This document shows, one piece after another, positions 2,437-55,445 of a DNA stretch of 64,000 nt; positions within the stretch are counted from its first letter, which is position 1, and each line of letters opens with the position of its first letter. The position numbers were made by a program, and so were the translations under genes. Below the pieces are notes generated by a model. It saw only the letters and a program-made list of their open reading frames with translations. It was not told where the DNA came from and made no database searches. This stretch comes from Candidatus Kaiserbacteria bacterium (lineage in GTDB: Bacteria; Patescibacteriota; Minisyncoccia; Phycocordibacterales; UBA918), in contig JANPCG010000015.1 of the NCBI GenBank assembly GCA_031430855.1, forward strand, positions 641 through 64,640. Reading direction: 5' to 3'.

Positions 2437-4236
2437 CTACAGCTGAGTGCCCTCTAGTTCACGCCTCGCGTTTTTTATCTGGAGGATTTGTGACGGGTCA
2501 GAGGTGATAATCTGATCCTCGGTATAGGACGCAATGACTTTAATTGCCACGTGTTTTAACCCTACAAAGAATAATCCTTCCCCCACATCGGATTCGAGCA
2601 ATAAGAATTTTTCTTCATCCGTAAGGTTGAAGGTACGTTGAATGTTATCAATCGCGGTTGGTGATTGTTTCATGAGAAATTGAAGAGAAGAGTTGGTAAT
2701 CATTGGTACGCCATAGGGGGAACGAAGAAAGTCATCCACATCTTGGGTAATGGTCGCAATCCCTAAAAAGTACTTCCGTCCTCGTTTAGCGAGACTGAAT
2801 AAAAACGATGCGGTATCTTCTGATTTCATCATCCACCACGCCTCATCAATCACCAGGAGTCGTTTAACGAGACGGCGCCTGATGGCAGACCAAATATAAT
2901 TAGTCACAATAAACATCCCAATAGTTTTGAGTTCATCTTCCATATCGCGCAGTGAAAACACCACAAATTTTTGATTTATATCAACGTTTGTTGGGTGGTT
3001 CATAAACCCAGACCAGGTTCCCGAGGTATATTTCTGTAGCCGACTGATGAGTGACCCACTCCCATTCATACCTGCCAACACCATTTCAAAATCGGATAAC
3101 AAAGGCGGCTCGAGCTCGCTAAAATTACTTTGTTCGGTAATGTCTTTTAGTGCGTAGGTCTCGCGAATTGCTTGATCGACGATCGTTTCCTCTTCGGGAC
3201 TGAGTCCGCCTAACATCAGTCGGAACAACCCAATGAGGTGCACGATTTGTGAGCGAAGGATGTCAGCCGGCTCCTCGTCTTCCCCAGGGGCTGGTAAATC
3301 AAACGGGTTAATGTGGTGTTTTGACGAAAGCGAAATATTAAAGAAACGTCCACCGGTTGCTTCAGCTAGGTATTCATATTCGCGCTCAGGGTCGATCACT
3401 ATCACTTCTGTTCCAAACATTAGGGACCGTAGAATTTCCAACTTAATACTGTATGACTTACCGGCACCAGAGGTCGCAAAGGTAACCGAGTTGTAGTTCG
3501 TGAGACCAAATCGATCAAATAGTACCAAAGATGAGTTGTGGCGGTTAATGCCGTAGAGGATTCCGGTGTCTGAGGTGAGGTCAAATGAGGTAAAGGGAAA
3601 AAAGCTCGAAAGGGGTGAAGAATTAAATTTACTATGGACCATTAATTCATCAGTACCGGTTGGAAAAATACTTCGTACCCCTTGTTCTTGCTGAAACAAA
3701 GCCGGTTTAATATAAATTAACTTAGAGTCAAGTGAACCTTTGATGTCATTTTCGACCTTATTCAAGGCTGTTTCGGTGTCACCATAGACGGCAATATAAA
3801 GCCCTACATCAAATAACTTTTCCTCAGCCTGTTGAAGTTTGTCACGCAGCTCTTCGAGATTGCGGTAGGCTGCTTCGAGCTGCGGGTCACGCACTTCCCC
3901 ACGATTGGCACGGATGTTAATTTGACTCTGTACCTCGGCTACTTTTTTTTGGAATTTTTTTAGGGTTTCTGCCGTACTGATAGGGTGAATTACAATCGTG
4001 ACATCAAGTTCCTTCTCGAGGTTAAGAATTGGTTCAAGCCACCCATCATTTAAATAGCGCGGGTAGGACACTGCGTAGAACACACGAGCTTGCGTTCCGC
4101 TAATGTTAATACTCCGGGGATTGATATTAATTGCTGACGGTGCAATCACATCAGTCAAGGTCAAGAGACTTTCACTAATCGCGTCCTGGCTCGGAGTTGT
4201 TTTAGGTTTAGGTTTTAAGTTGTCGAATAATCCCAT
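2437..4236 (-). CDS. VirB4/TraC/PrgJ-family type IV secretion / conjugation ATPase (C-terminal ATPase portion or complete short form)
   Basis: Walker A FATSGAGKSYS, Walker B VIDEAWWMM (DEAW) and a downstream ITQD motif. The N-terminus has a YPRYL-type motif seen in Gram-positive VirB4 proteins. Confidence 0.8.
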   Translation of the reverse strand: MGLFDNLKPKPKTTPSQDAISESLLTLTDVIAPSAININPRSINISGTQARVFYAVSYPRYLNDGWLEPILNLEKELDVTIVIHPISTAETLKKFQKKVAEVQSQINIRANRGEVRDPQLEAAYRNLEELRDKLQQAEEKLFDVGLYIAVYGDTETALNKVENDIKGSLDSKLIYIKPALFQQEQGVRSIFPTGTDELMVHSKFNSSPLSSFFPFTSFDLTSDTGILYGINRHNSSLVLFDRFGLTNYNSVTFATSGAGKSYSIKLEILRSLMFGTEVIVIDPEREYEYLAEATGGRFFNISLSSKHHINPFDLPAPGEDEEPADILRSQIVHLIGLFRLMLGGLSPEEETIVDQAIRETYALKDITEQSNFSELEPPLLSDFEMVLAGMNGSGSLISRLQKYTSGTWSGFMNHPTNVDINQKFVVFSLRDMEDELKTIGMFIVTNYIWSAIRRRLVKRLLVIDEAWWMMKSEDTASFLFSLAKRGRKYFLGIATITQDVDDFLRSPYGVPMITNSSLQFLMKQSPTAIDNIQRTFNLTDEEKFLLLESDVGEGLFFVGLKHVAIKVIASYTEDQIITSDPSQILQIKNARRELEGTQL

Positions 4237-4242
4237 GTTGTT

Positions 4243-4872
4243 CTATTGTATCGTAGGTGCGCTCCCGGTGATATCACCCGGATTGTATATGTGGTAAAAG
4301 AGTTCAACTAATTCATCGGTCTGGAGTGCAATCGTGCGGACTCCGATTCGGTTGAGTCCCTGTTCAACAATTGCTTGGCGTTGCTCGAGCTGGAGGCGCT
4401 GCTCTTCGATGGTCATATCATTTTGGATACTCATGCGGCCTTGAGAAATGATACTCCCAAAGCTTTTCGTGAGGTTTACCTTGGCGGCTGTGTAGGGAAC
4501 CACAACAAAAAAGTTTTTACTCATCACATCCACATCAGCCACAAAAGAGCGAATAAACTCAATGTATTCACGCAGCTGGATTCGCATTAAGTCGTTATCT
4601 TGATCGACGTTTCGCTCGTTAAGCATCGCTAAATACGGCTCAATATTAAGACGTCTTGATTGGACGTAAATCTGCAGTGAGAAATCAAGCGTGTTGAGGA
4701 AGTTTTGAAACTGAAACAGAATGGCTCGTTGTTCATCTTGAGATTTGAGCGCAAAGTTAACCGAAGAAGCTAAAAGAATCTTGCACAACTGACCACTTTT
4801 CAGTATGACAATATCATCGCGAATATCACGAATGGCAACAAATTCTTGGGTGGCTGCATTAGGGGTTGGCAT
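4243..4872 (-). CDS. VirB4 N-terminal-domain-like ORF. It is in frame with the downstream ATPase and separated only by TAG plus two codons.
   Basis: 209 aa, hydrophilic. The architecture (IRDIRDDIVILKSGQL...) resembles VirB4 N-domains. The stop TAG at 4243-4245 is in frame with the ATG at 4236. Confidence 0.45.
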   Translation of the reverse strand: MPTPNAATQEFVAIRDIRDDIVILKSGQLCKILLASSVNFALKSQDEQRAILFQFQNFLNTLDFSLQIYVQSRRLNIEPYLAMLNERNVDQDNDLMRIQLREYIEFIRSFVADVDVMSKNFFVVVPYTAAKVNLTKSFGSIISQGRMSIQNDMTIEEQRLQLEQRQAIVEQGLNRIGVRTIALQTDELVELFYHIYNPGDITGSAPTIQ

Positions 4873-4875
4873 AGA

Positions 4876-5307
4876 TTATTTTTTTTGAAGAGCTTGCAAT
4901 TCGAGACGCCTGGCGAGCGAGGTGATATCTTTTTTTGGACTACTCGCGGCGGGTATATAGCCAGGATTACGAATGGTTGTCGTGGGTAAGAAGCTTTGCT
5001 TGTGAATTATTTCTCGTTGTTGCTGCCAGAGATAGAGACGGTGTCGCCTAAAGTAATTATAAATAGCTTCTATAAAGTACGAAAAAGGTCGATTGTTGAT
5101 AGGGTAAAAAGAGAGCGCTCCCGCGAGAATTCCAAGTGGCAATCCAATGAGTATAAACACAATAAACGGAGCGGTGAGAAACAGTACGACCGCCATTCCG
5201 GCTCCCCCACCGAGATAGAGAAATTGCCGCCAAGTAAACGGGCCAAAAATTTTATCTTCAATTTCGATGAACTGCGGCACTTCAAATTGCATACCCGTAT
5301 TATACAC
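4876..5307 (-). CDS. PrgI/VirB3-like small membrane protein of conjugation systems
   Basis: 143 aa with two N-terminal TM helices (FTWRQFLYLGGGAGMAVVLFLTAPFIVFILIGLPLGIL). Sits directly upstream of VirB4, as in Gram-positive T4SS loci. Confidence 0.5.
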   Translation of the reverse strand: MYNTGMQFEVPQFIEIEDKIFGPFTWRQFLYLGGGAGMAVVLFLTAPFIVFILIGLPLGILAGALSFYPINNRPFSYFIEAIYNYFRRHRLYLWQQQREIIHKQSFLPTTTIRNPGYIPAASSPKKDITSLARRLELQALQKK

Positions 5308-31082: not shown

Positions 31083-31170
31083 AATCTCGTCATTGTACCA
31101 GAATTACATTGCTTTTTCGCCTCAGTGCGCGTATTATTTCAACCACTACATTGGCTTCGCTTAATGTACT

Positions 31171-31242
31171 GCACCCGTGGTGAAGTGGATATCATTACTG
31201 ACTTCGGATCAGTCGTCGGGGGTTCGAGTCCCTCCGGGTGCA
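31171..31242 (+). tRNA. tRNA-Arg(TCG), no encoded CCA
   Basis: Manual cloverleaf: acceptor GCACCCG/CGGGTGC; anticodon stem ACTGA/TCAGT with loop CTTCGGA; T-arm GGGGG-TTCGAGT-CCCTC. Confidence 0.85.
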
Positions 31243-31291
31243 CAAATTGGCCGACCCTAATGCGCAAGCATTGGGGTCGTTGCCATTTGTC

Positions 31292-31412
31292 GCGACCGGA
31301 GGGACTCGAAAAGACGCAGCGGGGCCCCTCTGGGCCGCGGCGTCTGGGGTCGAGCGAATGAGGTAATTTATGAACGAAGTGAAATAAATTACCCATGAGA
31401 GTGACCGAGTCC
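31292..31412 (+). repeat. Structured repeat element Y (family 1). It begins with an inverted copy of the tRNA-Arg T-arm/acceptor, then a GC-clamp hairpin, then a hairpin with loop GAACGAAGTGAA, and ends ...CATGAGAGTGACCGAGTCC.
   Basis: Paralogous to 31547..31617 and, in reverse orientation, to 43409..43533. The stems differ but remain complementary. Confidence 0.6.
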
Positions 31413-31451
31413 TTTTGAAAAGCGTTACGCGACTCGAAACCCGATTGAGTT

Positions 31452-31524
31452 GGATTAGGAGCGAAGCGAACTAATCCAACCAATTGGGATACTGAACCTG
31501 TAAGGTTCGAGTCCCCTGTCCCAG
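31452..31524 (+). repeat. Structured repeat element A (family 2): hairpin with loop GAGCGAAGCGAA, then CCAATTGGGATACTGAACCTGTAAGGTTCGAGTCCCCT
   Basis: Paralogous to 32859..32929. The 5-bp stem GAACC/GGTTC co-varies with GAACT/AGTTT in the other copy. Confidence 0.55.
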
Positions 31525-31546
31525 GAGAGGTGTGTTTAATGCTACT

Positions 31547-31617
31547 TCTGGGGTCGAGCGAATGAGCTTTATTGCAAACGAAGTGTAGCAATAAAGCCAT
31601 GAGAGAGACCGAGTCCC
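31547..31617 (+). repeat. Structured repeat element (family 1, partial copy lacking the GC clamp): TCTGGGGTCGAGCGAATGAG-hairpin(loop AAACGAAGTGTA)-CCATGAGAGAGACCGAGTCC
   Basis: Flanks identical to element Y. The stem sequence is entirely different but complementary, which is compensatory change. Confidence 0.6.
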
Positions 31618-31772
31618 TCCAAAAGCATTTCTACACTCAAAAGGTTGCCAGCTATTTTAAAAATTACGATTCAATTCATCTTAATTTCCACCACCTTCCT
31701 TCTTTTAGTTGACTCCCCCTTTATTTTTGCTACTCTTTTGCCATATCTTGTTCCAATCAAGAGGTTTACGTA

Positions 31773-31927
31773 TGGCAAGTGCTAATGGCAGCGGTAGGCT
31801 CACTCCCGCACAGCTCGCCCGTGAAGACAAAAAGCGCTTGCAGAAGGCAAAACGTCTCGCTCGCAAAAAGGCAGTGGCTGAATCTGCAAAGGTTGTCCCC
31901 CGCTCGGGCGCGCGCACCCTCTATTGA
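31773..31927 (+). CDS. Small basic protein (51 aa), possibly bS21-like; good RBS (AAGAGG)
   Basis: MASANGSGRLTPAQLAREDKKRLQKAKRLARKKAVAESAKVVPRSGARTLY. Lys/Arg-rich with a C-terminal ...LY, as in S21-type proteins. Confidence 0.4.
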
Positions 31928-32028
31928 TGTCGCGAAATGAACATCTAACCGCCCGGATAATATCCGGGCGTTCTGTTTATTACCATAAAATGAACACTGG
32001 TCTTAGTATATAATATACACACTTTGTT

Positions 32029-32714: not shown

Positions 32715-32785
32715 GCGGCCATGGTTAAGTGGTATAATGAGTCCTTGCCAAGGATTAGTCGGGGTTTCGATTACCCCTGGCCGCA
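32715..32785 (+). tRNA. tRNA-Gly(GCC), no encoded CCA
   Basis: Acceptor GCGGCCA/TGGCCGC; anticodon stem AGTCC/GGATT with loop TTGCCAA; T-arm GGGGT-TTCGATT-ACCCC. Confidence 0.85.
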
Positions 32786-32792
32786 CAAATCT

Positions 32793-32825
32793 AAAAAGAC
32801 CCGAGCTTCTGCTCGGGTCTTTTTA
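32793..32825 (+). terminator. Rho-independent terminator immediately after tRNA-Gly
   Basis: AAAAAGACCCGAGC-ttct-GCTCGGGTCTTTTT. Confidence 0.75.
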
Positions 32826-32858
32826 GATTTTGCTTGGGTAATCGAAAGACCAATAGAG

Positions 32859-32929
32859 CCAGATTTGAAGCGAAGCGCACCAATCTGGCCAATTGGGTTA
32901 CTGAACTCGTAGAGTTTCGACTACCCCTT
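32859..32929 (+). repeat. Structured repeat element B (family 2). It is preceded at 32835-32848 by an inverted copy of the tRNA-Gly T-loop (GGGTAATCGAAA).
   Basis: CCAGATT-tgaagcgaagcgcac-CAATCTGG, then CCAATTGGGTTACTGAACTCGTAGAGTTTCGACTACCCCT. Paralog of element A. Confidence 0.55.
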
Positions 32930-33402
32930 AAGTTAGTAGCAGGTTGCGTGGCAATCGAAAGAACTTGTCTGCTATTTTTTAAGTAAAAACGAGAAAGTTG
33001 CGACAAGGTGTGCTGCTCCAGTAAGTAGTCGATTACCTATGTCTGGTTTGCAACTAAAAGTAAGTAAATGAACTACTGACCGTCAGTTTCAATCACTACA
33101 AACATTACCCTACGTTCTCTGTCCTCTAAAATTACGAAATATAAAAGCACTCGCACCTGTGCACAACTTGTCTAACATGTGTATAAAGGACAGTCGTAAA
33201 AGACACATATCTTTGAATAGTACGGCCCGATATATAGCTTTCGGGATTAATTCTGTGTATAATTATAAAATTTTGTGTACCACGTGAAACGTGTTACGTA
33301 CACCTGTAATTATAGCCTTATATAAAAAAGTTACACATGAAACCAACGTATTCTAAAAAAAATTATCAAAAAGGCTGAATCTGGCTGCTATACTAGTTCC
33401 AT

Positions 33403-33816
33403 ATGGAACAAAAAGAGAAGTTAAAACTTAAAACTAAAGAAACTGGGAATAAAGGAGAGTTAATTTGTGCCCGGTACCTTAAAAGTGAGGGATTTACTCT
33501 AATTGCAATGAATTATCAAAAAAAGTGGGGTGAAATTGATGTTATTGTGCAAAAAGCCAATAAAATTCACTTTGTTGAAGTAAAAACAGTTTCATATGAA
33601 ACGAAGGACGATCTTGATTATGCAGTTGCACATGGAACGTGGCGGCCAGAAGATAATGTTCATCAAAATAAATTAATTAAACTATCTCGAGTAATTCAGA
33701 CCTGGATTATCGAACACAAGTGGTCTGGCGACTTTCAAATTGACGTTGCGGCGATAAGAATTGTACCACGTGAAACGTATGCACGTATTAATATCATTGA
33801 AAATATTATTCTGTAA
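33403..33816 (+). CDS. yraN: YraN-family (UPF0102) endonuclease-like protein
   Basis: GELICARYLKSEGFTLIAMNYQKKWGEIDVI core. The start codon sits inside a GTTCCATATGGAAC palindrome. Confidence 0.7.
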   Translation: MEQKEKLKLKTKETGNKGELICARYLKSEGFTLIAMNYQKKWGEIDVIVQKANKIHFVEVKTVSYETKDDLDYAVAHGTWRPEDNVHQNKLIKLSRVIQTWIIEHKWSGDFQIDVAAIRIVPRETYARINIIENIIL

Positions 33817-34266: not shown

Positions 34267-34286
34267 ATTGATTTAGAAAACAATAA

Positions 34287-34320
34287 GAAAATCACTAGTT
34301 TCATATGAAACTAGTGATTT
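34287..34320. terminator. Perfect 34-nt palindrome AAAATCACTAGTTTCATATGAAACTAGTGATTTT. Bidirectional terminator between the pseudogene and tRNA-Pro; carries the GTTTCATATGAAAC motif.
   Basis: Seen directly. U-tracts on both sides. Confidence 0.6.
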
Positions 34321-34328
34321 TCTTATTG

Positions 34329-34399
34329 TCGGGGAGCAGGGAATCGAACCCTGACCATCCGGTCCCAAACCGGATACACTACCACTATGCTACACCCCG
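34329..34399 (-). tRNA. tRNA-Pro(TGG), no encoded CCA; C1-G72 as in bacterial tRNA-Pro; one T-T mismatch in the acceptor stem
   Basis: T-arm CAGGG-TTCGATT-CCCTG; anticodon stem TCCGG/CCGGA with loop TTTGGGA. Confidence 0.8.
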
Positions 34400-34429
34400 A
34401 TGTAGCGAGAGAAGTGTGCGGGCTTTAGT

Positions 34430-34491
34430 ACATAATTCTGTATTACAGAAAATCAAAGTTCACTTTTATTTTCTGTAATACAGAATTATGT
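34430..34491. repeat. Perfect 24-bp inverted repeat with a 14-nt spacer, between divergent tRNA-Pro and the NUDIX gene
   Basis: ACATAATTCTGTATTACAGAAAAT-caaagttcactttt-ATTTTCTGTAATACAGAATTATGT. Confidence 0.8.
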
Positions 34492-43378: not shown

Positions 43379-43408
43379 ATGTAAATTATACCAAATTATA
43401 CTAAATGC

Positions 43409-43533
43409 TGGTGAGAAGAATCGGTCACGAGTTACTGACTATAATTGTTCACTTCGTTCCAATTCTAGTAAGTACTCTCGACCCCAACGCGCCGGCCCAG
43501 AGGGGTCCCGGCTTGCGTCCTTCGATTCTTCAC
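43409..43533 (-). repeat. Family-1 structured repeat element X, in reverse orientation relative to the tRNA-Arg copy. Includes partial copies of the tRNA-Trp 3' end.
   Basis: Its reverse complement aligns to 31292..31412. Shared blocks are GACGCA-GC-GGG-CCCCTCTGGGCCG, TGGGGTCGAG and the GAACGAAGTGAA loop. GGTGAGAAGAATCG is shared with tRNA-Trp. Confidence 0.6.
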
Positions 43534-43616
43534 GAAATATGCTCCCAGCATATTTCTTCACTCCGCACAGCAGCAACAGAAAAACCGTCCCTAAGGACGG
43601 CTTTTCATGTTGGCTG

Positions 43617-43687
43617 TGCGGGTGAGAAGAATCGAACTCCCGACTACTGCTTGGAAGGCAGTCGTTTTACCACTAAACCACACCCGC
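43617..43687 (-). tRNA. tRNA-Trp(CCA), no encoded CCA
   Basis: Acceptor GCGGGTG/CACCCGC; anticodon stem CTGCC/GGCAG with loop TTCCAAG; T-arm GGGAG-TTCGATT-CTTCT. Confidence 0.85.
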
Positions 43688-52461: not shown

Positions 52462-54213
52462 ATGCGTATTGCTGATGATCAGTTAAAGCGATTTATTCTT
52501 GATTCCAACCTTGTAACCAAGGCTGATATTGCTGCTGCCGAGAAAGTCTCCAAGGACGAAAAACGAACATTAAGCGAAGCCTTGATTGCCGGAGGTCTTA
52601 TGACCGAAGATGACATGCGGCGAGTAGAGTCATATATTCTTGGGATTCCGTTTGTGTCACTCAAAGACATTAAGATTGATTTTGAAATCCTCTCGCTGAT
52701 TCCTGAGCCGGTTGCGCGGACACATAATATTATAGCGTTTAAGAAAAACGAGTTTACGCTCGAGGTAGCCATGCTTGATACCGCAGATTTACCGGCTATA
52801 GATTTCATTAAAAAAAAGGTAGGATTAAAAATCTTACCCCGCTTGACGGATACCGACTCAATGCGCGGGGCCTTGCGCCAGTATCAAAAAACCCTCAAGG
52901 ATGAATTTGGTGACATTATTATGCGTGACGCCAGCTCACTTAAAGTGGTAAGTGACGCAAATGGTGAAGAGATGTCAGAGGCTGATCTAAAGAAAATGGC
53001 AGAAGATTTGCCCGTGGTACGAATTGTCGACACCCTCCTCCGACATGCCATCATTCAAGGCGCCTCAGATATTCATATTGAACCAATGGAAGAAGAAGTG
53101 TTAGTGCGGTACCGTATCGACGGTATCTTAAATGACGCCATGAAATTGCCAAAGATTGCGGCGGGTACTATTGTCGCTCGTCTTAAGGTGCTCTCTAACC
53201 TTAAACTTGACCAAAAACGACTTCCGCAAGACGGTAGATTTAAAATGGAAATGGATGGACAAAAAGTAGCCTTTCGCGTGTCGATGCTCCCAGTTTATTA
53301 TGGAGAAAAGGTGGTCATGCGTTTATTGCGAGAAAACCGCAGCGGCTTTTCGCTCGAAGGAATTGGTTTTCATGGGAGTACGCTCGAGCGTATTCACAAA
53401 GCAACGCGAGCAACGACCGGTATCATTTTGGTAACAGGTCCAACGGGGTCAGGAAAATCAACCACGCTTTATACGGTGCTTGATCTCTTAAATACGCCGG
53501 AAGTAAATATCTCAACCGTAGAAGATCCGATTGAATATCAGATGGCCCGTGTTAATCAAACACAAGTGAAGCCTGATATTGGTTTTACGTTTGCGGCTGG
53601 CCTAAGGTCTTTGATGCGTCAAGATCCCGACATTATTATGGTGGGAGAAATTCGCGATCAAGAAACGGCCAGTCTGGCTATCAATGCAGCCTTAACCGGA
53701 CACCTGGTCTTAGCTACTGTGCACACCAATTCCTCGTCGGGTACCATTGCCCGTTTAATTGATATGGGGGTTGAATCATTTCTCTTGGTATCAACCCTGC
53801 GGGTTGCGATTGGTCAGCGTCTCGTCCGAAAATTAGCTGATGACAAAATCGCGTACACTCTTACGAAAGCAGAGCGTGACGAACTAGCACTTCATGCCAA
53901 CCTCGATTTTGTATTAGAAACACTCAAAGAAGAAAAAATTGTGAAAGATGACGCGACATGGAATGATATCCCGTTCTATCATCCCAAAGAAAAGGGAGTG
54001 ACCGAAGATGGATATCATGGTCGAATGGGAATTCATGAAGTCTTGGAAATGTCAGCGACCATTAAAAATATGGTAATGAGTAGAGAGACGGGTGATGCGC
54101 TTGAAGCACAGGCGCGCAAGGAAGGGATGCTTACGATGATGGAAGACGGAATTTACAAAGCCGCCAAGGGACTGACGAGTATTGAAGAGGTGCTTCGAGT
54201 CATTAGTGAATAA
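52462..54213 (+). CDS. pilB: Type IV pilus assembly ATPase PilB/GspE family
   Basis: Walker A GPTGSGKSTT; Asp and His boxes; tetracysteine-less variant. Confidence 0.9.
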   Translation: MRIADDQLKRFILDSNLVTKADIAAAEKVSKDEKRTLSEALIAGGLMTEDDMRRVESYILGIPFVSLKDIKIDFEILSLIPEPVARTHNIIAFKKNEFTLEVAMLDTADLPAIDFIKKKVGLKILPRLTDTDSMRGALRQYQKTLKDEFGDIIMRDASSLKVVSDANGEEMSEADLKKMAEDLPVVRIVDTLLRHAIIQGASDIHIEPMEEEVLVRYRIDGILNDAMKLPKIAAGTIVARLKVLSNLKLDQKRLPQDGRFKMEMDGQKVAFRVSMLPVYYGEKVVMRLLRENRSGFSLEGIGFHGSTLERIHKATRATTGIILVTGPTGSGKSTTLYTVLDLLNTPEVNISTVEDPIEYQMARVNQTQVKPDIGFTFAAGLRSLMRQDPDIIMVGEIRDQETASLAINAALTGHLVLATVHTNSSSGTIARLIDMGVESFLLVSTLRVAIGQRLVRKLADDKIAYTLTKAERDELALHANLDFVLETLKEEKIVKDDATWNDIPFYHPKEKGVTEDGYHGRMGIHEVLEMSATIKNMVMSRETGDALEAQARKEGMLTMMEDGIYKAAKGLTSIEEVLRVISE

Positions 54214-54218
54214 ATCCT

Positions 54219-55445
54219 ATGCCAACATTTACCTATCAGGGAGAGGATTCAGAAGGAAAAAAGGTTACTGAGACAGTAACGGCTGATGATCGGTATGCGG
54301 TGTATGACATTGCCCGGACAAATGGACATACGGTTTCGGGAATAGAAGAGCGGACAGGGATCAAACTCAAGCGCTTGTTTGACATGGAGGCTATTAATGC
54401 TCGGTTGGGACGGGTAAAACAAGACGAGCTCGTCATGGTGACACGAAATCTCGGTTCTATGTTGGTAGCGGGGCTCACTATTACAAGGGCACTCTCGGTT
54501 ATCGAACGTCAAACCACCAATGCGAAGCTTAAGGACGTGGTTCGAAAAATTATTGCACGTATTAACAAAGGTGATCAGTTTAATGAAGGCCTCAAGGATC
54601 ATCCAAAAGTTTTTTCTGATTTATATATTGCAATGGTTCGCGCTGGGGAAGAGAGTGGTAATTTAGCCCAGTCTCTCCAGACGTTAGCGATTCAAATGGA
54701 ACGAGCATCAAATCTCAAGAAGAAAATAAAAGGTGCCATGATGTACCCGTCAATCGTAATTATTGTTATGTGCATCATTGCAGTTTTAATGATGATATTT
54801 GTGATGCCAGCGATTACCGGAGTGTTTGAAGGGATGGGTAAAGATCTGCCAGCCACCACGAAAGCGTTGATTGCGGCAACCAACTTTTTTGCGAACTATA
54901 CCCTCATCGCTGTTGGGGGTATCCTTGCGTTTGTTGTTTCTATCATTTGGGTCCTAGGTACCAAGATTGGGAAACGCTGTACCTCATGGATTGTCACGCG
55001 GCTACCCGTTATCGGTACTCTCGCCAAAGAAATGAACTCTGCCCGTACCGCACGGACACTCTCATCACTCTTGGATTCTGGAGTTGATGTAATGCAGTCA
55101 TTATCGATAACCGAAGAAGTGGTGCAAAATTTCTACTACAAAAAAATTTTACAAACAGCTCGCGAGCGAGTAGAGAAGGGGACGGCGCTCTCAGAATCTT
55201 TTATTGAGCGGTCAGATTTATATCCCGTTCTCGTCGGGGAAATGATTTTGGTAGGAGAGGAAACTGGTCAAATTTCAGGCATGCTTGGTGAATTAGCGAT
55301 TTTTTATGAGACTGAAGTTGAGCGTAAGACCAAGGATCTCTCTACTATTATTGAGCCAATACTAATGGTGGTAATAGGTGCAGGAGTTGGTTTCTTTGCG
55401 CTCGCCCTCATTGCTCCAATTTATTCAATCTCAGATGGTCTCTAG
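54219..55445 (+). CDS. pilC: Type IV pilus platform protein PilC/GspF
   Basis: Two GspF repeats, three TM helices, 408 aa. Confidence 0.9.
   Translation: MPTFTYQGEDSEGKKVTETVTADDRYAVYDIARTNGHTVSGIEERTGIKLKRLFDMEAINARLGRVKQDELVMVTRNLGSMLVAGLTITRALSVIERQTTNAKLKDVVRKIIARINKGDQFNEGLKDHPKVFSDLYIAMVRAGEESGNLAQSLQTLAIQMERASNLKKKIKGAMMYPSIVIIVMCIIAVLMMIFVMPAITGVFEGMGKDLPATTKALIAATNFFANYTLIAVGGILAFVVSIIWVLGTKIGKRCTSWIVTRLPVIGTLAKEMNSARTARTLSSLLDSGVDVMQSLSITEEVVQNFYYKKILQTARERVEKGTALSESFIERSDLYPVLVGEMILVGEETGQISGMLGELAIFYETEVERKTKDLSTIIEPILMVVIGAGVGFFALALIAPIYSISDGL

Follow-up and report, generated by a model that had tools for sequence, protein, structure and literature searches.

In the window, i.e., the whole 64-kb stretch of DNA that was analysed, three of the four tRNA genes are followed on their 3′ side, and on their own strand, by small non-coding cassettes, and matches to a hairpin model that rise above noise are restricted to these three tRNA flanks (Table 1). 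The cassettes belong to a modular family of about 120–250 nt, found directly 3′ of tRNA and tmRNA genes of Patescibacteria. The parts of a unit follow the order tRNA 3′ end, H1 palindrome, antisense arm, hairpin module or modules and direct copy, with H1 being a long palindromic hairpin that is often perfect. The first-pass annotation had described three structured copies, and overlooked that the adjacent tRNA's 3′ end recurs on both sides of the units, once as an antisense and once as a sense copy.

The array behind tRNA-Arg(TCG) holds three units. Its H1 forms the centre of a long palindrome that includes the tRNA-Arg 3′ end, and there is no T-run terminator in 31244–31281, i.e., none between the tRNA and the array. 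The source of the antisense arm of unit 1 is the tRNA from the T-loop through the 3′ end together with 8 nt of trailer; an exact CCGGAGGGACTCGAA lies inside the arm, and the exact antisense match amounts to 15 nt. The unit is closed by the CGAGTCC behind its P3, which pairs with the antisense arm, and its P2 is 83% complementary to the P2 of copy 3 on the opposite strand. Unit 2, overlooked earlier, sits between copies 1 and 2, with its hairpin at 31441–31488 (loop GAGCGAAGCGAA), a small hairpin (GAACCT-GTA-AGGTTC) and a direct copy, GGTTCGAGTCCC, at 31504–31515; type C homologues of this unit were found in loci L012, L015, L023, L031 and L046. Directly behind the array, at 31628, begins a flank, TTTCTACACTC, that is common to the window and its relative L046.

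Table 1. Features of the cassette arrays in the window
Feature	Position	Strand	Evidence
tRNA-Arg(TCG), anchor of first array	31171..31243	+	ARAGORN and Rfam tRNA model, 60.5 bits
H1: trailer and hairpin CGACCCTAATGC-GCAA-GCATTGGGGTCG	31244..31281	+	inverted repeat, fold
Antisense arm, unit 1	31282..31310	+	inverted copy of 31223-31251, 23/29 nt complementary (79%)
P2 of unit 1, GC-clamp hairpin GACGC..GGGGCCCCTCTGGGCC..GCGTC	31313..31344	+	sequence
P3 of unit 1, type B variant of the 64-nt hairpin (copy 1 of the first-pass annotation)	31345..31406	+	hairpin model, 55.8 bits, E 1e-11
Short direct copy of tRNA-Arg T-loop and T-stem (CGAGTCC)	31406..31412	+	sequence
Unit 2 (type C)	31431..31515	+	hairpin model, 26.3 bits; antisense GACTCGAAA
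P3 of unit 3, type B (copy 2 of the first-pass annotation)	31549..31610	+	hairpin model, 49 bits
Direct copy of tRNA-Arg 3′ end, CGAGTCCCTCC-aaaa-GCA; array end	31610..31627	+	11-nt exact direct match
tRNA-Gly(GCC) locus	32715..33045	+	tRNA 32715-32786; hairpin-model match 19.7 bits
Direct copy of tRNA-Gly(TCC) 3′ end, CGATTCTTCTCACCAGCA	43406..43423	-	14-nt exact match
P3 of copy 3, type A, canonical 64-nt hairpin	43423..43486	-	hairpin model, 89.2 bits, E 4e-20
P2 of copy 3, GC-clamp hairpin	43487..43519	-	sequence, inverted repeat
Terminator-like hairpin (43585-43600), then degenerate antisense arm	43521..43600	-	sequence
tRNA-Gly(TCC), anchor of copy 3	43616..43687	-	tRNA searches

The flanks that copies 1 and 2 had been said to share are indeed identical, each of the two 20-nt flanks occurring exactly twice (at 31343 and 31547, and at 31393 and 31597; chance expectation 0 to 0.01), and the description given of the stems, (G)GTAATTTAT/ATAAATTAC(C) in one copy as against (G)CTTTATTGC/GCAATAAAG(C) in the other, is correct, as is that of the 12-nt loops. 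The stems differ between copies and are complementary, but they are less unrelated than had been claimed, most stems being variants of an AT-rich nTAGATTnn theme. The GC-clamp hairpin ascribed to the full copies is present in unit 1 and in copy 3, whereas unit 3, i.e., copy 2, has no P2 of its own. As for the third copy, it does lie on the minus strand, but its neighbour is tRNA-Gly(TCC) and not, as had been stated, tRNA-Trp. Its stem is complementary save for one G·A mismatch, which is conserved across the family; its antisense arm is interrupted by a hairpin (TGCGGAGTGAAGAA, the hairpin AAATATGCT-GGG-AGCATATTT, then GTGAAGAATCGAA), and its direct copy differs from the tRNA by one mismatch.

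At tRNA-Gly(GCC), a perfect 20-bp hairpin H1 (32787–32830) directly follows the gene, and two degenerate units, likewise overlooked before, are contained within 32831–33045. The first has an antisense GGGTAATCGAAA (32836–32847) and a type C hairpin (32858–32889), and the second extends from GGCAATCGAA at 32950–32959 through CGATTACC at 33030–33037; the orthologous unit after tRNA-Gly(GCC) in L046 is fuller than that of the window. Window genes for a CCA-adding enzyme and a TadA-like deaminase adjoin two of the arrays.

In the family as a whole, the antisense arm is exactly antisense to the 3′ half of the tRNA, and a small conserved hairpin often interrupts it. It complements the 3′ strand of the tRNA and is not copied from the 5′ strand; at the tRNA-Tyr of L023, the arm is a perfect complement at the U·G and A·C positions. 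A unit has one or two conserved hairpin modules, P2 followed by the 64-nt P3 or a type C hairpin in their place, and all carry an apical loop of the form GA..GAA. The tRNA 3′ half is then repeated as the direct copy, which begins immediately at the end of P3 and, in terms of the tRNA, at a fixed T-loop position, C56/G57. A second class of units contains the antisense of the last few bases of the tRNA plus the trailer, and the direct copy is absent. At 26 of 32 loci, an exact antisense match of 9 nt or more to the 3′ end of the locus's own tRNA was found, as against 12.5% of mismatched locus pairs, and at 22 of the 32 an exact direct match, again of 9 nt or more, as against 5%; full direct copies of 19–29 nt occur in L012, L025 and L040. 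Among the 53 distinct tRNAs of the retrieved DNA, 24 are followed by an antisense arm, at offsets of +36 to +53 and +69 to +86. The helix of trailer and antisense has a mean Watson–Crick run of 9.9 in own-locus pairs versus 5.0 in other-locus pairs.

A strict pattern search returned about 40 further loci, nearly all from Patescibacteria, behind at least 20 tRNA species and tmRNA; of the 32 metagenome pattern matches, three (L030, L037 and L041) had arisen by chance in GC-rich coding DNA. In their behaviour the units resemble insertions: they form arrays, are nested, are present or absent between close relatives, and are shared by unrelated tRNAs. Their number and order vary between arrays (L012 versus L031; L025; L040), and in L014 and L020 units with tRNA-Tyr-type arms are located apart from any tRNA, nested within a further pair of T-arm-like inverted copies. 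The distance from tRNA-Arg to TTTCTACACTC is 384 nt in the window, with three units, and 96 nt in L046, with none, and the CCA-adding enzyme of L046 is 90% identical to that of the window. In the L050 strain, with 97% identity over 1.6 kb, the tRNA-Gly(GCC) allele and the units both differ. Among the related loci compared, there was no filled and empty pair whose two boundaries were cleanly identical. Over the first 95 nt behind tRNA-Leu(GAG) of L019 and behind tRNA-Arg(TCT) of L043, identity is 86%; the tRNAs themselves are 58% identical, and orthologous flank pairs reach 76–78%. The same 64-nt P3 stands in L014, with Tyr-type arms, and in L039, with His arms. Such identity at different tRNAs was considered as proof of recent transposition, and this was dropped because the modules beside the identical P3, namely P2 and the small hairpin, differ; the shared P3 reflects constraint, not recent copying.

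The claim of a paralogous structured family with covarying stems was borne out by an alignment of 34 distinct copies of P3, in which 95.5% of the cells are paired (slid controls, 28–45%), both sides have changed in 12 of 23 pairs, and the covariation score was reached by none of 500 shuffles. P3 is a simple continuous hairpin, nearly invariant across distant lineages of Patescibacteria, with invariant unpaired purines; its length and its non-canonical positions (G8·U60, A9·G59, U17·U50, G22·A45 and the bulged A55) are kept across about 40 loci. The 3′ strand of P2 reads ..AGC-GA-GC/GG in 34 of 38 units and the 5′ strand RGYGAUG in 18 of 38. Conserved GA dinucleotides thus stand in an asymmetric loop that may resemble a K-turn (a canonical stem, a 3-nt bulge, tandem sheared G·A pairs and a non-canonical stem), and an alternative Watson–Crick register is also supported; the K-turn motif is absent from the P2 hairpins of the window itself. 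Counted over the whole unit, 23 of 45 pairs are compensatory, and on the tRNA-sense strand G·U exceeds A·C by 30 to 6. Between the window and L046, five of ten stem pairs after tRNA-Gly(GCC) differ in a compensated manner and the hairpins are kept, and in copy 3 of the window P3 is intact though the arms have decayed. The intact P3 and the compensated orthologous stems speak for a role at the present site, and thus perhaps for a host RNA. Covariation alone does not discriminate between RNA and folded single-stranded DNA. It had been argued that this is not what a decaying repeat looks like; the contrast is overdrawn, since the outer arms decay in the window and the units are insertion-like.

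Searches with Rfam 15 of the window and the other loci agreed with the earlier failure to recognise a family, with only tRNAs passing the gathering threshold; at E up to 10 (31100–31800) and up to 1 (four further loci), chance-level hairpins alone appeared. The families covered included hammerhead, twister, pistol, hatchet, HDV-like, group I/II introns, SRP, 6S, tmRNA, rtT, Y RNA and GOLLD/ROOL/HEARO. The window has 52 ORFs that reach 110 aa, and the 50 of them that were searched gave no integrase, transposase, reverse transcriptase or HUH protein; no enzyme family of this kind recurs near the units of other loci. Viral contigs, phages and plasmids gave no match to the units, and no free or circular form was seen there. 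The search for a recurrent partner protein yielded only syntenic housekeeping genes and an HTH-LAGLIDADG family, which lies 5′ of tRNA genes in Saccharibacteria-like contigs and has no tie to the units. Literature searches returned no description of such Patescibacteria elements or of hairpin-type tRNA integration.

Taken together, the results point to a mobile cassette of small size that targets tRNA genes, or else to an RNA linked to the tRNA, and not to a known ribozyme. Of the options offered by the first-pass annotation, that of a mobile element fits best. The reading tentatively preferred here, at somewhat less than an even chance, is that of a non-autonomous cassette whose spread to tRNA 3′ ends takes place at the DNA level, its hairpins being selected as a tRNA-sense single strand. 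It draws on the arms copied from the neighbouring tRNA, on the insertion-like behaviour, on the single-strand structure and on a DNA-level signature in H1, whose hairpins are perfect palindromes of up to 25 bp and whose tetraloops are self-complementary in 6 of 30 cases. As with tRNA-targeting inserts, the tRNA gene is kept whole, and at 22 of the 32 loci its 3′ end recurs as a displaced direct repeat. Insertion or duplication at the DNA level would be aimed at the tRNA 3′ end, with the crossover in the T-loop or at the 3′ terminus. In the single strand, the sense and antisense copies would pair into a hairpin with the sequence of the duplex tRNA gene 3′ end, which a host recombinase could take as an attachment site. 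Single-strand exchange followed by replication would then give the tRNA, H1, the antisense arm, the modules and the displaced 3′ end, i.e., exactly the observed unit order. Within the single strand, the conserved hairpins would bind proteins or act as structural modules, and they are probably also transcribed as a putative 3′ extension of the tRNA. Against this reading weigh the searches above, in which neither an enzyme nor a free or circular form was seen, the constraint on P3 and its persistence beside decayed arms, the compensated stems of orthologous units, and the problem of retargeting. A new tRNA would require both arms to change together, for which hairpin-primed copying is offered as a guess only. 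A bolder form of the proposal, and a doubtful one, is a class of non-coding integrative elements in which a single strand of roughly 200 nt, DNA or RNA-derived, would imitate the duplex tRNA end with its hairpin and be inserted by a host recombinase, through single-strand exchange, in the T-loop or 3′ terminus, its arms perhaps being re-templated by hairpin-primed synthesis.

The main alternative, that the units are tRNA-linked small RNA genes, transcribed with or just after the tRNA, is rather less likely. The arms would mimic the acceptor/T-stem helix, so that RNase P, RNase Z and the CCA-adding enzyme release a stable RNA, and P2 and P3 would bind a conserved host protein; the arms would match the tRNA because the unit began as a partial tRNA duplication and adjacent repeats were kept alike. 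This would agree with the placement of the units, always on the tRNA strand and 76–305 nt downstream, with the excess of G·U over A·C on the tRNA-sense strand, with the near invariance of P3, intact beside decayed arms, with the compensated stem changes in orthologous units, and with the conserved GA dinucleotides of the asymmetric, possibly K-turn-like P2 loop. It would also suit the window tRNA-Arg, where no terminator separates tRNA and array, and L025, where each unit is followed by its own terminator-like hairpin. Against it, a closing helix alone would not need the exact sequence of the neighbouring tRNA, T-loop complement included, at 20 or more tRNAs. Many of the direct copies are truncated or interrupted (unit 1 of the window keeps 7 nt; L001 and L008 have indels), which makes an acceptor-like end impossible for these, and the second class of units has no direct copy. 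Many loci have a T-run terminator-like hairpin between the tRNA and the unit, and a search for a promoter of the units found none. Perfect palindromes of 20–25 bp in H1, moreover, are not a product of RNA-level selection.

It is improbable that the units are a cis-acting structure of the 3′ trailer. In this case the tRNA 3′ end and trailer would be bound by the antisense arm within the primary transcript, as a control on termination, 3′ maturation or CCA addition, and the direct copy would be a competing strand through which the tRNA is released. The helix formed by the last 4–6 nt of the tRNA and the trailer with the antisense does covary, at ten loci with eight different tRNAs, including a compensated change between L004 and L005, and the CCA-adding enzyme and the deaminase encoded beside two window arrays would fit. 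Such a structure leaves unexplained the tandem arrays, the nested units, the units apart from any tRNA and the close relatives in which the same tRNA has no modules. The folding of the tRNA would face competition from a 20-bp duplex that engages its 3′ half, and the gene neighbourhood is not conserved across loci.

There is an equally slim chance that the units are a neutral, functionless by-product of template switching at tRNA terminator hairpins, which would create and extend palindromes and duplicate DNA locally. In H1, the stems form perfect palindromes with the tRNA 3′ end included, and self-complementary loop centres are enriched among H1 tetraloops (6 of 30), an excess that supports an origin at the DNA level; GNRA/UUCG loops on H1 were considered as an RNA signature and rejected (5 of 30 tetraloops, versus 2 of the reverse-complement GNRA class). 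The decay of the arms in the window is also in line with a by-product. Neutrality does not account for the upkeep of P3 in length and in its non-canonical G·U, A·G, U·U and G·A positions and bulged A, for the double-sided changes in P3, or for the conserved P2 and small-hairpin modules. A self-cleaving ribozyme or other known catalytic RNA, the ribozyme option of the first-pass annotation, to which nothing points, is the least probable of all: some known small ribozymes do occur near tRNAs and mobile DNA, and the compact conserved structure with its invariant unpaired purines is of a suggestive kind, but no Rfam ribozyme family matched even at E up to 10, P3 offers neither a multi-helix junction nor a pseudoknot candidate, and the module types are interchangeable among units.

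The genomes of Patescibacteria are tiny and streamlined, yet roughly half of the sampled tRNA genes are trailed by 1–4 cassettes, with a core hairpin conserved nearly as well as a tRNA across distant lineages. If mobile, the cassettes would be the smallest known tRNA-targeting insertions, and could bring to light a way of site-specific integration at tRNA genes by means of a hairpin mimic; if they are single-strand integrative elements, tRNA 3′ flanks of Patescibacteria would be a habitat for viroid-sized, rod-shaped DNA parasites. If they are RNAs, a third of bacterial diversity would possess a major RNA class, with tRNA-like ends, that has gone unrecognised. The cassettes also account for the breaks that assemblies of Patescibacteria metagenome bins show at tRNA genes. 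They should be masked or annotated, since ORF calling yields spurious frames that run across them, e.g., a mechanical ORF at 31139–31600 of the window.

Among known systems, TIGR arrays, whose hairpin loops carry box C/D-like motifs and two spacers and which lie beside a Tas (Nop-domain) gene (PMC12045711), were considered and rejected: the unit loops, at 11–13 nt, have no room for spacers, and there is no Tas gene nearby. Plant dicistronic tRNA–snoRNA genes and bacterial 3′ external transcribed spacer RNAs likewise place a structured RNA directly 3′ of a tRNA, and by analogy the units might be released by tRNA-end nucleases. The possibly K-turn-like loop of P2 recalls box C/D RNAs, but the units have neither the box C/D consensus nor guide segments, and these RNAs, unlike the units, are not known to carry tRNA 3′-end copies. 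REP/REPIN–RAYT elements and other MITEs resemble the units in being short, non-coding intergenic hairpins with complementary stems whose enzyme is encoded elsewhere; the units differ in being confined to tRNA 3′ flanks and not dispersed, and in having arms copied from the local target, and no RAYT/Y1 transposase was seen in the window (50 of 52 ORFs of at least 110 aa).

The 178-bp repeats of E. coli tyrT, with their rtT RNA, stand in tandem directly 3′ of a tRNA, as the units do. Each repeat closes with a tRNA 3′-end copy and is released from the tRNA transcript, and tandem units that end in this way are found in the tRNA-Arg array of the window, in L025 and in L040; a small basic ORF lies near both repeats and units. 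The units extend to at least 20 tRNAs and a whole bacterial radiation, the tyrT repeats have, to our knowledge, no antisense arm, and homology to rtT, which Rfam presumably includes, is not indicated, with no Rfam match besides tRNA.

Islands and prophages that target tRNA or tmRNA genes by a tyrosine integrase are alike in the 3′-end site, the intact gene, the displaced direct copy and the tandem accretion at one tRNA. Their junctions, too, fall in the T-loop or at the extreme 3′ end, which are reportedly two of the classic integrase sublocations in tRNA genes (described, it is said, by Williams in 2002). The units differ in measuring about 200 nt instead of kilobases, with no integrase and no ORF, and in having an exact antisense copy of the target and conserved hairpin modules. 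A parallel to the hairpins may be the attP(+) of CTXφ, used by XerCD, and the attC of integrons, used by IntI. In both, the site is a strand-specific hairpin defined by fixed mismatches and bulges within a variable sequence, as in P3. The units have no phage genome and no cassette ORF, no IntI-like gene was seen in the window, and the target is a tRNA gene, not dif or attI. The likeness, proposed by analogy, is that the stem of the unit reproduces the duplex target, the antisense arm being a perfect complement of the tRNA 3′ half, and on such a model integration would leave an inverted arm inside the insert, which is the unit order seen.

The tRNA-derived sequence that closes every unit is a feature that was overlooked in the first-pass annotation. 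Behind tRNA-Arg, the stretch from the T-loop through the 3′ end and 8 nt of trailer recurs as an inverted copy (see table), and the units of this array end in CGAGTCC, GGTTCGAGTCCC or CGAGTCCCTCC, all of which are fragments of the 3′ half of that tRNA. On either side of the tRNA-Gly(TCC) unit stand GAAGAATCGAA, in antisense, and CGATTCTTCTCACCAGCA, which is the last 18 nt of this tRNA with one change. It is the tRNA 3′ strand that the antisense arm complements; the arm is not a copy of the 5′ strand, and at the U.G and A.C positions of tRNA-Tyr the perfect complement was found in it.

Both 20-nt flanks described earlier for copies 1 and 2 (31292-31412 and 31547-31617) were present exactly twice, at the positions given there, which by chance would be expected essentially never, and the stems and loops agreed with the earlier description. 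The third, reverse-oriented copy was also recovered; its neighbour, however, is tRNA-Gly(TCC) and not tRNA-Trp. Copies 1 and 2 belong to a variant, type B, whose core hairpin P3 contains an internal loop and whose P2, lacking in copy 2, is a GC-clamp hairpin; they are separated by a further such hairpin (GTTGGATTAG-GAGCGAAGCGAA-CTAATCCAAC), the middle unit of the array being of type C. A search with the hairpin model yielded a weaker unit 49 nt 3′ of tRNA-Gly(GCC), behind which a second, degenerate one was recognized by eye, and units are thus carried by three of the four tRNA genes of the window. Rfam 15, the proposed check, matched only the four tRNAs there, whether curated thresholds were applied or E was allowed to rise to 10. 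Two spurious mechanical ORFs overlie the array and the tRNA-Arg gene, and gene callers may annotate such false ORFs over these GC-richer structured arrays. tRNA-Pro(TGG) is without a unit and is flanked on both sides by long palindromes.

Coordinates of features (window positions unless another locus is named)
Feature	Position	Strand
Type IV secretion-like genes (VirB4/TraG P-loop, PrgI) and type IV pilus genes (PilB, PilC types)	2437-5292 and 52462-55445	
Spurious ORF, 78 aa	31125-31361	+
Spurious ORF, 153 aa	31139-31600	-
tRNA-Arg, T-loop to trailer	31223-31251	
Inverted copy of the preceding	31282-31310	
51-aa very basic ORF (MASANGSGRLTPAQLAREDKKRLQKAKRLARKK...)	31773-31927	+
Terminator of the 51-aa ORF	31950-31970	
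Recurrence of AGTTTCATATGAAAC, a motif of the tRNA-Pro(TGG) palindrome region	33588-33615	
Palindromes flanking tRNA-Pro(TGG), whole region	34280-34491	
Perfect 50-bp palindrome, centre CATATG	34280-34329	
tRNA-Pro(TGG)	34328-34399	-
Inverted repeat on the other flank, 30-nt arms	34430-34491	
Copy 3	43423-43486	-
HTH-LAGLIDADG paralog, 247 aa, in L046	3244-3987	-

A type A unit reads, in order: the tRNA 3′ end; the trailer with H1, a long hairpin often set between an A-run and a T-run; the acceptor 3′ strand in antisense; a semi-conserved small hairpin, AAGCAAActgcTTTGCTT; the T-stem 3′ strand with the T-loop, again in antisense; P2; P3, of exactly 64 nt; and a direct tRNA copy from C56/G57 of the T-loop onward. 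Class 2 units are without the direct copy, and in them the antisense segment forms a helix with the final 4-6 nt of the tRNA and 6-8 nt of the trailer. The Watson-Crick run averages 9.9 at the unit's own locus versus 5.0 for mismatched loci, where a run of 9 was reached in only 1 of 90 locus pairs.

The occurrence of the element in related genomes, left in question by the first-pass annotation, was established at further genome and metagenome loci, nearly all in Patescibacteria. A strict pattern (TGGGGTCGAG and the loop, with 17-18 free bases between them) matched 12 loci among one-genome-per-species contigs, 11 of them labelled Patescibacteria (Kaiser-, Yonath-, Parcu- and Paceibacteria, Saccharibacteria), and 32 metagenome loci, three being chance matches in GC-rich genes. 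The remaining genome contig (L007, JBLHQB010000023.1) is labelled Patiriisocius sp. (Bacteroidota), yet its unit is a typical one of type A; the contig may be mis-binned Patescibacteria DNA, and failing that would be the sole host in this collection with another label. In 33 of the 45 true matches a tRNA or tmRNA on the same strand ends upstream at a distance of 76-305 nt, in most cases 105-135 nt; of the others, several are located at contig ends, and most of the rest stand behind orphan tRNA 3′-end fragments. Model searches of the same contigs added copies, again mostly 3′ of tRNAs; over all copies, at least 20 tRNA species are involved, plus tmRNA. A census of the fetched DNA, which took in tRNAs not picked by the strict pattern, found an antisense copy of the last 22 nt at regular offsets for 24 of 53 distinct tRNAs and a GA-loop hairpin within 500 nt for 31.

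The sequences show the structure to be under selection on the tRNA-sense strand. The reported stem covariation was borne out across 34 distinct P3 sequences, with 95.5% of cells paired (28-45% in slid controls) and both-sided changes in 12 of 23 pairs (115 cells). The covariation score was 0.393 versus 0.137 in shuffles, none of 500 reaching the observed value; the search pattern forces part of the P3 sequence conservation, the covarying pairs being free of that constraint. Non-canonical positions are also kept (G8.U60, A9.G59, U17.U50, G22.A45, bulged A55). RNAalifold gave 45 pairs over 12 whole units, 23 of them compensatory, spanning the small hairpin, outer helix, P2 and P3, and in these units G.U outnumbers A.C by 30 to 6 on the tRNA-sense strand. 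The GA dinucleotides in the asymmetric loop of P2 are compatible with a K-turn, both strands of the motif being kept in only about half of the units and an alternative register being possible. This structural evidence fits RNA and folded single-stranded DNA alike.

The reading tentatively ranked first is that of a non-autonomous cassette which would spread at the DNA level to tRNA 3′ ends, its hairpins acting as a single strand. Several features are signs of insertion and turnover at the DNA level. Unit number and order vary between loci. One class 2 A unit, identical over more than 100 nt, stands behind a genuine tRNA-Arg(GCG) in L012 and behind a displaced 3′-end copy closing a type C unit in L031; L025 has two units along with three terminator-like hairpins that are homologous, in L040 a block of two units is repeated, and Tyr-type units in L014 and L020 lie remote from any tRNA, within inverted copies of another T-arm-like sequence. 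The first 95 nt behind tRNA-Leu(GAG) in L019 and tRNA-Arg(TCT) in L043 are 86% identical, the tRNAs themselves 58%; orthologous tRNA-Arg(GCG) pairs reach 76-78% at most in that flank. H1 stems are perfectly palindromic over as much as 25 bp, and self-complementary centres occur in excess. From tRNA-Arg to the shared flank TTTCTACACTC there are 384 nt in the window and 96 nt, without any module, in the relative L046 (CCA-adding enzyme 90% identical). Between tRNA-Arg and the CCA-adding enzyme gene, L046 has an inserted HTH-LAGLIDADG paralog, 28% identical to the protein of the window, which is absent at this position in the window. The close strain L050 (97.2% identical over 1.6 kb) retains the tRNA-Arg array; from the upstream gene's stop codon onward, another tRNA-Gly(GCC) allele with other units is present in it. 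It also conserves the 51-aa ORF found between the array and the HTH gene; the tyrT repeat region of E. coli encodes a small basic protein too. In three close relatives (L045, L047, L048) the contig ends at, or about 120 nt or less from, tRNA-Arg(TCG), which would fit assembly breaks from these repeats or strain heterogeneity.

Against mobility, no integrase, transposase, reverse transcriptase or HUH protein was found among 50 of the 52 window ORFs of at least 110 aa or recurrently near units elsewhere, and viral, phage and plasmid collections held no copy. Identical P3 sequences adjoin differing P2 and small-hairpin modules, and their identity therefore reflects constraint. P3 remains intact where the arms decay, and between the orthologous tRNA-Gly(GCC) units of the window and L046 five of ten stem pairs differ, all compensated, which together suggest a function in place. 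The main rival, possible though less favoured, is that the units are tRNA-linked small RNAs with tRNA-like ends, a reading compatible with the cassette and not exclusive of it. Purely cis-regulatory action and neutral growth of palindromes, both improbable, explain less than these two, as does a ribozyme, the least credible of all.

In the cassette reading, the tRNA gene would undergo single-strand exchange with a folded strand, the sense and antisense arms of which would imitate the duplex end of that gene; such an exchange would leave the tRNA, H1, antisense arm, modules and displaced 3′ end in the order seen. Type IV secretion and pilus-type machinery handles single-stranded DNA, and the genes of this kind in the window could be relevant to single-strand insertion. 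CTXphi with XerCD and the attC sites of integrons exchange through a folded single strand, and the proposed exchange at tRNA ends would work by analogy with them. No published description of such elements was found in the literature or matched in Rfam 15, nor any known system joining sense and antisense target-tRNA copies with conserved hairpin modules; the near precedents, namely tRNA-targeting islands, folded-hairpin attachment sites, the E. coli tyrT/rtT repeats, REPINs and tRNA-linked small RNAs, each have one feature in common with the units.
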